Assembly: GCF_050920415.1 (NCBI RefSeq)
Contig: NZ_CP169309.1
Length of the DNA: 64,000 nt
Source: Escherichia coli
Lineage (GTDB): Bacteria; Pseudomonadota; Gammaproteobacteria; Enterobacterales; Enterobacteriaceae
Direction: 5' to 3' (one strand)
In this document: positions 54,327 through 56,289 of the stretch, in pieces
Position numbering within the stretch: the first letter of the stretch is position 1
How the letters are laid out: the number at the start of each line of letters is the position of its first letter
The notes under the pieces: generated by a model
Databases searched by the model: none
What the model was told of the DNA's origin: nothing
What the model saw: only the letters and a program-made list of their open reading frames with translations
Translations under genes and position numbers: made by a program

Positions 54327-54623
54327 TTAATGGGAGGCAAGTTCCCGGAAAAAGGCAGGATTTTCTTTAATTGTGGCAAGTACTTTTGCAGCCAATCCCG
54401 TAGGATTTCTTCGCTTCGATTCCCAGCTTTTAATGGTATCCACACTGGTTCCCAGAGCTTTTGCCATCTCACTTTGCGAAACGTTGAGTTGCTCACGAAT
54501 AGCTTTAACATCCGCAATTTCGTAGCGGGTCACCCGTGCAGGTTCTTTTAAACCTTGTTTAATCTCGACAGCCTCTTCCAGAGAGGTTTTCAACTCATCA
54601 AAAAAACTCATTTTATACCTCAC
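54327..54623 (-). CDS. XRE-family HTH protein, putative antitoxin of a toxin-antitoxin-like pair
   Basis: 98-aa ORF with a C-terminal HTH (LNVSQSEMAKALGTSVDTIKSWESKRRNPTGLAAKVL); its start overlaps the upstream toxin ORF by 11 nt. Absent from K-12 at this position. Confidence 0.6.
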   Translation of the reverse strand: MRYKMSFFDELKTSLEEAVEIKQGLKEPARVTRYEIADVKAIREQLNVSQSEMAKALGTSVDTIKSWESKRRNPTGLAAKVLATIKENPAFFRELASH

Positions 54624-54945
54624 CTTTGAGCAGTTTCGTCAACTTCTTTAGTTGAGCTTTTTCCGTATCTGTCAGACTGTCTTTGGCATTCTTCGGATAG
54701 GCCATAATCAAATAAATAATCTCTTCCGTCGCCAGAAAGTAAATTATTCTGACACTACCACTTTTTCCCTGTGAACCCGCAGCCATTCGGACTTTACGCA
54801 ATCCACCAGTCTGCTGAATGAGATCACCTTTATCGGGAGTTCCGATGAGTTCTTTTTGCAATTCCTTTAATTCATCATCGGTTGCAATCTGCTTGATCTG
54901 ACGCGTAAACATTGGCGTCTCTATAAATATTATCGCCTTGCCCAT
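54613..54945 (-). CDS. RelE/ParE-superfamily (HigB-like) putative toxin
   Basis: ORF trimmed to MGKAIIFIETPMF... (110 aa) with GGLRKVRMAAGSQGKSGSVRIIYFLATEEIIYLIMAYPKN, typical of RelE/HigB-like toxins; RBS-like agggaagggta just upstream of the ATG; toxin-first gene order. Confidence 0.55.
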   Translation of the reverse strand: MGKAIIFIETPMFTRQIKQIATDDELKELQKELIGTPDKGDLIQQTGGLRKVRMAAGSQGKSGSVRIIYFLATEEIIYLIMAYPKNAKDSLTDTEKAQLKKLTKLLKGEV

Positions 54946-54959
54946 TACCCTTCCCTGGC

Positions 54960-55000
54960 AGGTACATTGTACACCAAAATGGAGTACTAAGTACACTTTT
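54960..55000 (-). promoter_or_regulatory. putative promoter/operator of the toxin-antitoxin pair (GTAC-containing palindromes)
   Basis: ggtacattgtacacc and gagtactaagtacac inverted repeats 15-55 nt upstream of the toxin start. Confidence 0.3.
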
Positions 55001-55036
55001 GAATCAGTAATATCACTCAACATCTTATAAAGATGA

Positions 55037-56269
55037 TTATCCCTGCTCCCCCATCATCTCCCGCACCAACTCCACGCAGCGCAGGAAACGGCTGTCGTAA
55101 TCGTCCTCTTCAACCCGCACAAATTCGATATTGTTCTCTTCCAGCATTTCCACCAGCAAGTTCTGGAACTCTTTGCGATCCACCGAACTGCCGAGACTGC
55201 GTAAACCATCCGCCACCCACGGCGTGTTGTTCTCCAGCAGAATCACCAGATCAAAACGGTATTCATCGATCAGCGCCTGTACGAACGGATGCTCGCGCCC
55301 TTCGTACTTTTTGCAGAACGCCTGAGTTGTCACAAAATCGGTGTCGATAAACGCCACTTTATTGGCATATTTTACTGCAAAATCAATATATTGAGCGTGT
55401 CCAAGTGCGATTTTATCGTAGTCGGAATACTGCAATGCGATCTCATCGCCGCCAAGATGTGAAAAGACATAATCGCGACCATATTCCCATGCACTGGTAG
55501 TGTTGAAGATATTGGCAAGTTTGTTTACCAGGGTGGATTTACCGCTCGATTCGCCGCCGAGGATCGCCACGGTGCGCACAAAGAACGGCTTCACTTCGGT
55601 AGGAATATATTCCCAGTAGCGGAACGGATTTTCGCGGATCTGCGCACCACTGATACTCATAAAAGTACGTTTCGGATCGACCAATACCGTTTCGATCCCC
55701 AGATGTTCCATATACTGCGGCGCGTCGGCTTCTTCCGAGGTGTAGATCAGATCCGGCTGGATCCCTTTTTCAGCCATAAACTTTTTGATGCCGTTGCTCC
55801 ACACATCCCAGCCATGCGGATACGGCTCCATGCCCTCTTCGTTGAATGCATGAATGCGAATATTTTTCTGATATTTAAAAGTTTGCAATAACCAGCGCAG
55901 ACGATCCGGCACCGTGGGCTGCTGCGACATGGCGCTGTCTTCGAACAACGCGCGGTCGCGGGTAGCGTCAAAGCCCATAATGATATGCAGCTCGTCAACC
56001 TGACTACAGGCACGCTGGATAAGGTAGATATGTCCGGTATGCAGCGGGTAAAACTTACCGAATACAACACCAATAGTTTTCTTCTGCCGGGGAAATTCAA
56101 GTCCCAAATAACGGTGCAACGCCTCCAGCTTTTGCGCGCTGGGGCTTTTAATTTTGGCATTCAGTAACTGGCTTAAATACCCTTTGGTCATACCGCTGGC
56201 ATCAGCCACCTGCTGTAGCGTACAGCCCTGTTGCTTGATGGCAGTTTTCAGATAATCAAATGACGACAT
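55037..56269 (-). CDS. nadR: bifunctional NMN adenylyltransferase / ribosylnicotinamide kinase and NAD regulator
   Basis: ORF trimmed to MSSFDYLKTAIKQQGCTLQQVADASGMTKGYLSQLLN... (N-terminal HTH), 410 aa. Confidence 0.93.
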   Translation of the reverse strand: MSSFDYLKTAIKQQGCTLQQVADASGMTKGYLSQLLNAKIKSPSAQKLEALHRYLGLEFPRQKKTIGVVFGKFYPLHTGHIYLIQRACSQVDELHIIMGFDATRDRALFEDSAMSQQPTVPDRLRWLLQTFKYQKNIRIHAFNEEGMEPYPHGWDVWSNGIKKFMAEKGIQPDLIYTSEEADAPQYMEHLGIETVLVDPKRTFMSISGAQIRENPFRYWEYIPTEVKPFFVRTVAILGGESSGKSTLVNKLANIFNTTSAWEYGRDYVFSHLGGDEIALQYSDYDKIALGHAQYIDFAVKYANKVAFIDTDFVTTQAFCKKYEGREHPFVQALIDEYRFDLVILLENNTPWVADGLRSLGSSVDRKEFQNLLVEMLEENNIEFVRVEEDDYDSRFLRCVELVREMMGEQG

Positions 56270-56289
56270 ATCTCCCTCCCTATCTCTCA

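Follow-up and report, generated by a model that had tools for sequence, protein, structure and literature searches.

In type II toxin–antitoxin (TA) operons, the antitoxin typically represses transcription at palindromes that overlap its own promoter. The operator of HigA2 from Vibrio cholerae, TGTACGC-N5-GCGTACA, has been footprinted, has been crystallised with HigA2 (PDB 8a0w/8a0x), represses in vivo, and runs from just past the −35 element across the −10 element (PMC11006873). A plasmid-borne HigBA2 module of Acinetobacter baumannii has also been found to be autorepressed in vivo by its antitoxin, and more strongly by the complex (PMC5906591). Two further systems, both from Escherichia coli, offer related palindromes. 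That of MqsA reads 5′-AACCT-N3-AGGTT (PMC4894380), and the YefM-YoeB operator contains paired TGTACA cores that are 12 bp apart, centre to centre (PMC1802561). Here, we describe a pair of GTAC-N3-GTAC palindromes found in a 64,000-nucleotide stretch of an E. coli chromosome (hereafter, the window), which we predict, with a probability of about 85%, to be the operator of NadS in a TA operon of this kind.

The genes in question lie between nadR and ettA, the latter being on the plus strand and convergent with nadS (Table 1). The toxin gene precedes nadS on the same strand with 1 nt between them, which is the reverse gene order of HigBA2 modules, and an identical RefSeq genome labels the two products as "type II toxin-antitoxin system RelE/ParE family toxin" and "NadS family protein" (gene nadS). 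The toxin matches Pfam PF06296 above the gathering score (E = 4.6e-10), and its nearest solved relatives are V. cholerae HigB-2 chains (E = 7.5e-17, residues 6-102). The nadS product matches the NCBIfam model NF041265 (NadS) over positions 1-94 of 94, with 182.6 bits against a cut-off of 60 (E = 1.2e-54); its residues 35-79 correspond to an XRE-type HTH_3 domain, and its nearest solved relative by sequence is V. cholerae HigA-2 (E = 2.2e-6). In the AlphaFold model of NadS, residues 1-30 have a pLDDT of 45-50, compared with 73-84 over residues 31-70, and the N-terminal region may be disordered, judging from the low model confidence alone. The C-terminal domain of this predicted fold superposes on that of HigA2 with an rmsd of ~2 Å, and the best fold matches of the model are 5jaa, 8a0x, and 5j9i, with MqsA structures coming next (ranks 9-10). 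Thus, gene order, toxin family, and antitoxin architecture all identify the module as HigBA2-type, and NadS is its presumed repressor.

The pair has been named before, as parE-3/yiaG-2 (TA30), in an inventory that covers the TA systems of adherent-invasive E. coli; it places the pair in the nadR-ettA gap and reports that it is missing from K-12 but shared by CFT073 (PMC7232551). Strain NU14 is another carrier of the locus. Our literature searches for the gene name nadS or for the nadR-side TA locus did not find a functional study. For the nadR-side locus, the sole yield was the inventory mentioned above, and for nadS combined with "antitoxin", it was a remark on nadS expression in K-12.

Table 1. 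Positions of the genes and sequence elements discussed in the text, numbered along the window unless another locus is named.
Feature	Position	Strand	Remarks
nadR	55037-56290	minus	E. coli chromosome; stop codon 55037-55039
nadR-toxin gap	54946-55036	minus-strand genes on either side	91 bp
Toxin gene	54613-54945	minus	110 aa; RelE/ParE superfamily, HigB2-type; ATG at 54945
nadS	54327-54611	minus	94 aa; HigA2-like antitoxin
Proximal palindrome, core	54962-54972		GTACATTGTAC, GTACA-T-TGTAC; TA strand (minus) reads GTACAATGTAC
Distal (promoter-upstream) palindrome, core	54984-54994		GTACTAAGTAC, GTACT-A-AGTAC; TA strand (minus) reads GTACTTAGTAC
Proximal palindrome, extended 17-mer	54959-54975	minus	GGT-GTAC-AAT-GTAC-CTG
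Distal palindrome, extended 17-mer	54981-54997	minus	AGT-GTAC-TTA-GTAC-TCC
Predicted −10, TACAAT	54966-54971	minus	inside the proximal palindrome; 5/6 matches
Predicted weak −35, TGTACT	54990-54995	minus	in the distal palindrome; 3/6 matches
Shine-Dalgarno-like purine-rich run, GGGAAGGG	54948-54955	minus	read from the sequence
Small AT-rich hairpin, CATCTT-TAT-AAGATG	55021-55035	minus	just after the nadR stop; read from the sequence and present in the RNA fold
LexA-box-like variant (locus L057)	about 1000-1015 and 1464-1474

A first-pass annotation of the window had drawn attention to two palindromic strings in the gap. Both were located on the plus strand, "ggtacattgtacacc" at 54961-54975 and "gagtactaagtacac" at 54982-54996, and the core of each is a perfect 5+1+5 palindrome. 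The first base of the proximal palindrome lies 27 nt upstream of the toxin ATG, and the two palindromes are spaced 22 bp, start to start, which is roughly two helical turns and would thus place both units on about the same face of the DNA. The distal 17-mer differs from the family consensus, GGT-GTAC-N3-GTAC-(a/t)CC, by two mismatches. Written as GTACNNNGTAC (GTAC-N3-GTAC), the motif has only two matches in the 64-kb window, both in the gap, compared with 0.38 expected from shuffles, although this test is weak when taken alone, as at least two matches were found somewhere in 9 of 100 shuffles. Two matches that are 22 bp apart within one 91-bp gap are not explained by chance. Variation among five E. 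coli alleles, which are 91-100% identical, is too low to inform on constraint within the species. [quoted passage not shown]

We aligned 14 NadS proteins and scanned the alignment against one genome per species, which yielded 80 loci from Enterobacterales, Halomonas/Vreelandella, Nitrosomonas, Cellvibrionaceae, and others. Each of the 14 proteins has the same recognition-helix segment, GTSVDTIKSWE, and the RRNPTG that comes after it is also invariant, while positions 65-66 (SK in E. coli) are variable. At least one perfect GTAC-N3-GTAC was found within 130 nt upstream of the toxin start in 61 of the 69 loci with an intact toxin start, a count that overstates independence given that the loci are phylogenetically related; among shuffled upstream regions, 0.14% contained a site. 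In these 61 loci, of which 42 are single-site and 19 two-site, the site begins 27-64 nt ahead of the toxin start codon. The single-site consensus is a-GGT-GTAC-tAT-GTAC-(t/a)CC-A, and the GGT left flank of proximal sites is near-invariant (G in 16, G in 19, and T in 19 of 19). The full 17-bp dyad is only partial, since the right flank is complementary in 23-38 of the 68 distinct sites, depending on the position.

Across whole loci of ~3.3 kb, the motif is nearly confined to the position 5′ of the TA genes, and the flanking DNA is unrelated between genera. Because the surrounding DNA is unrelated, the motif would represent a footprint and not the common ancestry of the entire region. Comparative conservation is, in our opinion, the decisive test against chance, and the motif reads as a phylogenetic footprint that extends across Enterobacterales, Vibrio, Halomonas/Vreelandella, Nitrosomonas, and Cellvibrionaceae. 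The fetched loci contain just two GTAC-N3-GTAC sequences outside the region 5′ of the TA genes, at 266-276 of L023 and at 754-764 of L052.

The N3 length is invariant in every site, while the start-to-start spacing of two-site operators is 21 bp in 12 loci, 22 bp in three (the window included), 20 bp in two, and 19 bp in two. A constant N3 combined with a variable pair spacing indicates that the recognition unit is the N3 palindrome and not the inner GTAC pair. This bears on a very unlikely alternative, according to which the two inner GTAC cores (GTAC-N11-GTAC, 54969-54987) would make up a 19-bp site in the style of HigA2, bound by a single NadS dimer. There are several points in its favor, namely that the inner segment is partly palindromic (GTACaCCA-aAa-TGGaGTAC, with seven of eight pairs complementary), that the HigA2 operator contains GTAC-N9-GTAC (PMC11006873) and NadS has the HigA2 fold, and that the half-site spacing of HigA2 is nearer to the known span of such a dimer. 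Nevertheless, 42 of the 61 site-bearing loci have a single 11-bp palindrome, which leaves no inner pair, and the distance between the inner cores ranges over N8-N11 in two-site loci and amounts to 17-19 nt in distant homologues, whereas N3 is constant. Moreover, the base-contacting residues R68, E71, and N72 of HigA2 (PMC11006873) are D, K, and S in NadS. Owing to the single-palindrome majority and the variable inner spacing, we rejected GTAC-N11-GTAC as the main unit, and we consider the 11-bp GTAC-N3-GTAC palindrome to be the element that NadS would recognize.

Two-site operators present an additional form of symmetry. In 12 of the 19, the central triplets are mutual reverse complements (ATA/TAT, ACA/TGT, CAT/ATG, or AGT/ACT), so that the entire operator forms a larger dyad, the arms of which reach 18 bp on a K. 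pneumoniae virulence plasmid (L094). The pair found in the window, TTA/AAT, is not mirrored. The mirrored triplets hint at a symmetric higher-order complex or, as another possibility, at an origin by inverted duplication.

An important question is which of the two genes the palindrome belongs to, and rearranged loci are informative in this regard. The palindrome is missing ahead of the toxin in seven loci, from Enterobacter, Lelliottia, Trabulsiella, and Pseudenterobacter. What these loci have instead, at ~100 nt upstream of the HigB2-like toxin, is a perfect LexA-box-like CTGTATATAAATACAG with a GC hairpin after it. Their toxin ORF is extended at its 3′ end, and the extension contains a single GGTGTACTATGTAC(T/C)CC (GTAC-TAT-GTAC), ~33 nt ahead of the nadS start. 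We read one locus of this group, L057, in full, and there the stop codon of the toxin gene and the ATG of nadS overlap (ATGA). This arrangement suggests that the toxin may be SOS-inducible, with the antitoxin being autoregulated separately. Furthermore, one locus missing most of the toxin gene still has the palindrome before nadS, while in remnant loci in which the 5′ part of the toxin gene is deleted, including the K-12-type E. coli allele, the palindrome is gone. Thus, the rearranged and remnant loci argue that the element follows the antitoxin gene, and the palindrome appears to travel with nadS rather than with the toxin.

Remnants are frequent in E. coli. A partial locus between nadR and ettA was found in 4973 of 5426 genomes, and the whole TA pair was found in 673 genomes; among the partial loci sampled, most consist of a 5′ nadS fragment and some of the nadR end alone. 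The deletion junctions of the K-12-type allele (L002) and of Escherichia sp. MOD1 (L003) differ, with both deletions having taken the operator together with the 5′ part of the toxin gene, and nadS is intact in MOD1 but reduced to a 5′ fragment in the K-12-type allele. Of the small hairpin that follows nadR, MOD1 retains only the first arm and the loop (TCATCTTTAT, up to the deletion junction), and K-12-type alleles are without it. These observations point to an ancestral module in repeated decay and not to a recent insertion. A transposon screen has found that the K-12 remnant is expressed (PMC12350097), presumably through read-through from nadR.

A palindrome that is read by NadS would be expected to change with the recognition helix. 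The PGAP label NadS also extends to many plasmid proteins that are more distant, and we fetched 10 of these loci; six of their antitoxins were aligned with E. coli NadS and MqsA, and the helices of the remaining four were read from the translations (residue numbers follow NadS). Antitoxins with D58 and (K/R)61-S62 are accompanied by GTAC-N3-GTAC, as observed in V. parahaemolyticus (69% identical), on the K. pneumoniae virulence plasmid (44%), and in Pantoea dispersa (45%); the K. pneumoniae plasmid carries two copies, TAGTAC-CAC-GTACTA and TAGTAC-GTG-GTACTA. Helices with S58 (SLVQS or SLVEA), found on the K. pneumoniae AR_0148 plasmid and on Salmonella p40-95A, are accompanied by CCTAC-ACT-GTAGG or CTTAC-ACA-GTAAG. 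The general form of this class is (C/T)TAC-N3-GTA(G/A), located in the 17-bp spacer of canonical TTGATA...TATAAT and TTGCAT...TATAAT promoters, although in K. oxytoca P3, which has an S58-type helix, the site is imperfect. Finally, helices of the V. cholerae type (TLxN62WEQ), found on Acinetobacter plasmids, in Francisella, and in a Salmonella Newport locus, are accompanied by TACGC-CATTG-(G/A)CGTA, with the general form TACGC-N5-(G/A)CGTA, which is essentially the V. cholerae HigA2 operator. The palindrome changes when, and only when, the DNA-reading residues change, as predicted for an operator, and neither a promoter alone nor an RNA hairpin nor a site for a host factor predicts this co-variation.

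It is worth mentioning that the label "NadS family protein" assigned by PGAP reaches down to 36-39% identity (plasmid loci L088-L096) and spans at least three helix/operator classes, some of the proteins being in fact of the HigA2 type known from V. cholerae. Thus, the name implies neither a single DNA specificity nor a link to nadR. A more speculative proposal, which we consider possible but rather doubtful, is that operators within the HigA2/NadS fold family have switched between TAC-N3-GTA and TAC-N9-GTA, with the outer base of the 4-mer following residue 58 (D/S) and the geometry following residue 62 (S/A or N), and that the NadS-class palindrome doubles as the −10 element (TACNNT), so that operator and promoter would be the same 11 bp. 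If this were true, the mode in which NadS docks on DNA would differ from that of the solved HigA2-operator complex, and chromosomal and small-plasmid copies with a common helix could cross-regulate.

Regarding the promoter, a strict sigma-70 consensus scan of the TA strand of the gap found none, and the best candidate in a relaxed enumeration, TGTACT-N18-TACAAT, is weak, with 8 of 12 matches. This candidate would place the −10 in the proximal palindrome and the −35 in the distal one, an exact assignment that we favor only slightly. Support for a −10 at this position may be found in single-site loci, since among 47 distinct contexts, T occupies the last position of N3 in 42, while A occupies the first in only 12. 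This strand asymmetry would be unexpected from a symmetric dimer alone, and it fits a −10 of the form TACNNT, which retains the critical A (position 2) and T (position 6) of the hexamer. In addition, TTGACA-like matches peak exactly 17 bp upstream of TACNNT, with a mean of 2.9 versus a background of ~1.5. In the Photorhabdus and Xenorhabdus loci, there is a better promoter upstream, TTGTAA-N16-TAGAAT, which would place the site at ~+1, and the location of the −10 inside the palindrome may therefore not be a universal rule. In the window, transcription would start near 54956-54960 and produce a short leader that holds GGGAAGGG; related loci have GGAG-type runs at the same position before the toxin.

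Transcription from upstream must also be considered. The hairpin on the nadR side has no T-run and was not called a terminator, and a terminator scan of the gap found no terminator-like site. In the absence of a convincing terminator, transcription of nadR could continue into the TA operon, and some expression may arise by such read-through, unblocked by promoter occlusion.

That the palindromes contain promoter-like sequence leads to a second alternative, which we judge very unlikely, in which they would constitute a core promoter or a leader without any repressor, for instance as a 5′ RNA hairpin (GGUGUAC-NNN-GUACACC) affecting mRNA stability or translation. It is true that the TACNNT within the site resembles a −10 hexamer, that a DNA palindrome is able to fold as an RNA hairpin, and that the site would be transcribed in some loci, from a promoter upstream of it. 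However, a promoter does not need a perfect dyad, nor does a hairpin need invariant GTAC letters. The stem is fixed in sequence and not just complementary, and its flanks are symmetric only in part. Furthermore, shuffled sequences fold as well as the RNA of the gap (z = −0.14), an Rfam search of the gap gave no match at E ≤ 1, and the shift of the motif with the antitoxin recognition helix is predicted by neither a promoter nor a hairpin. Together with the lack of a terminator-like site, the fold and Rfam results also led us to set aside a nadR terminator or a structured RNA as unlikely. Least credible of all is the binding of a host factor such as NadR, or a role of the sites in nadR 3′-end formation, for although the sites are directly downstream of nadR and the name nadS suggests a link, adjacency to nadR is restricted to Escherichia, the motif follows the TA pair into unrelated contexts and plasmids, and the gap holds neither a terminator-like structure nor a NAD-box-like TGTTTA-N6-TAAACA (with up to two mismatches).

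We are thus left with the operator as the preferred reading. The first-pass annotation had claimed that the palindromes are an autoregulatory operator bound by the HTH antitoxin, and conservation, linkage to nadS, co-variation with the helix, and the HigA2 homologue make this claim a strong inference. In the mechanism that we propose, the 91-bp gap would be the promoter-operator of a chromosomal HigBA2-like type II TA operon, with the toxin first and nadS second. The recognition unit would be the 11-bp GTAC-N3-GTAC, extended to ~17 bp as GGT-GTAC-N3-GTAC-(a/t)CC, and each unit would be bound by one NadS dimer through its C-terminal XRE helix-turn-helix domain, with GGTGTACTATGTACACC as the predicted NadS-dimer site and a core spacing of 7 bp. 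The likely −10 (TACAAT) is part of the proximal unit, and there is overlap between the distal unit and the likely −35 (TGTACT), so that occupied units would keep RNA polymerase out and the operon would thereby be autorepressed. Judging from related systems, the toxin-antitoxin complex is probably a stronger repressor than the antitoxin alone.

This element is ordinary in kind, although previously undescribed for the NadS family, and it leaves the general picture of type II TA autorepression unchanged. What it provides is a concrete and testable operator consensus for NadS, a family with annotated members in many Gammaproteobacteria and on hundreds of plasmids. The co-variation between helix and operator also offers a simple system for studying the evolution of XRE-HTH specificity and of half-site spacing, and the motif could serve as a quick way of separating live from decayed modules and as a predictor of cross-talk between chromosomes and plasmids.

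With respect to plasmids, many single-site NadS modules are located on contigs or plasmids of ~4-6 kb (12 of the loci, plus five hits of a plasmid search), where they lie downstream of a conserved gene ending in ...RYYGPSM* or ...TRYHGPTL*. Among the hits of the plasmid search are ~5-kb plasmids from E. coli, Klebsiella, and Pectobacterium; the search matched 589 plasmid records, and for 302 of them the mobility type is given as mobilizable. The NadS proteins of three of these loci (L017, L042, and L051) are 80-84% identical to the chromosomal one, and copies at 80-84% are also found on ~5-kb plasmids. The same GTAC operator is present upstream in all 12 loci, which makes cross-repression between plasmid and chromosome conceivable.

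As for the described systems, the Acinetobacter plasmid homologues that we fetched, which may not be the pAB120 allele studied previously (PMC5906591), are labelled NadS by PGAP and are 37-39% identical to E. coli NadS, but they have a V. cholerae-type helix and the palindrome TACGC-CATTG-ACGTA in place of GTAC-N3-GTAC. The YefM-YoeB operator is similar in that it consists of GTAC-containing paired palindromes that cover the −10 box in the promoter of a TA operon and that many genomes have retained upstream of the homologues. It differs in its repressor, which has the Phd/YefM fold and not an HTH, in having a single 6-bp palindrome per core and another spacing, and in that the antitoxin gene comes first.

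The palindrome of MqsA shares the geometry of the NadS sites, with short arms exactly 3 bp apart that are read by a C-terminal XRE-HTH dimer, as would also be the case for NadS. Two such palindromes are likewise present in the mqsRA promoter. The NadS HTH matches MqsA models weakly (PF15731, E = 5.6e-4; TIGR03830, E = 1.2e-9), below the cut-offs and only in the C-terminal HTH part. However, the arms of MqsA are ACCT/AGGT and those of NadS are GTAC/GTAC, NadS has no cysteines and lacks the zinc-binding N-terminal domain of MqsA (two CxxC), and its toxin is HigB2-like and not MqsR. Given that the zinc domain and the cysteines are absent, we rejected NadS as a member of the MqsA family, and the arms-N3-arms layout is a geometric resemblance and not a sign of family membership.

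The closest system remains HigBA2 from V. cholerae, which has the same toxin-first order, a homologous toxin (E = 7.5e-17) and antitoxin HTH domain (E = 2e-6), an antitoxin whose N-terminal part is disordered or of low confidence, and a palindromic operator with (T)GTAC over the −10 region, an overlap that is also predicted here. In contrast to the V. cholerae operator, which is a single 19-bp site with GTAC cores that are 13 bp apart, centre to centre, the NadS loci have 11-bp (~17-bp) units with cores 7 bp apart, and there are two such units in E. coli. R68, E71, and N72 of HigA2 correspond to D58, K61, and S62 of NadS, with R77 alone being kept, as R67, while the homologues that keep N62 have the V. 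cholerae-type site. Thus, the NadS operator is outside the V. cholerae HigA2 class, from which it differs in its arms, in its spacing, and in three of the four base-contacting residues of its antitoxin.
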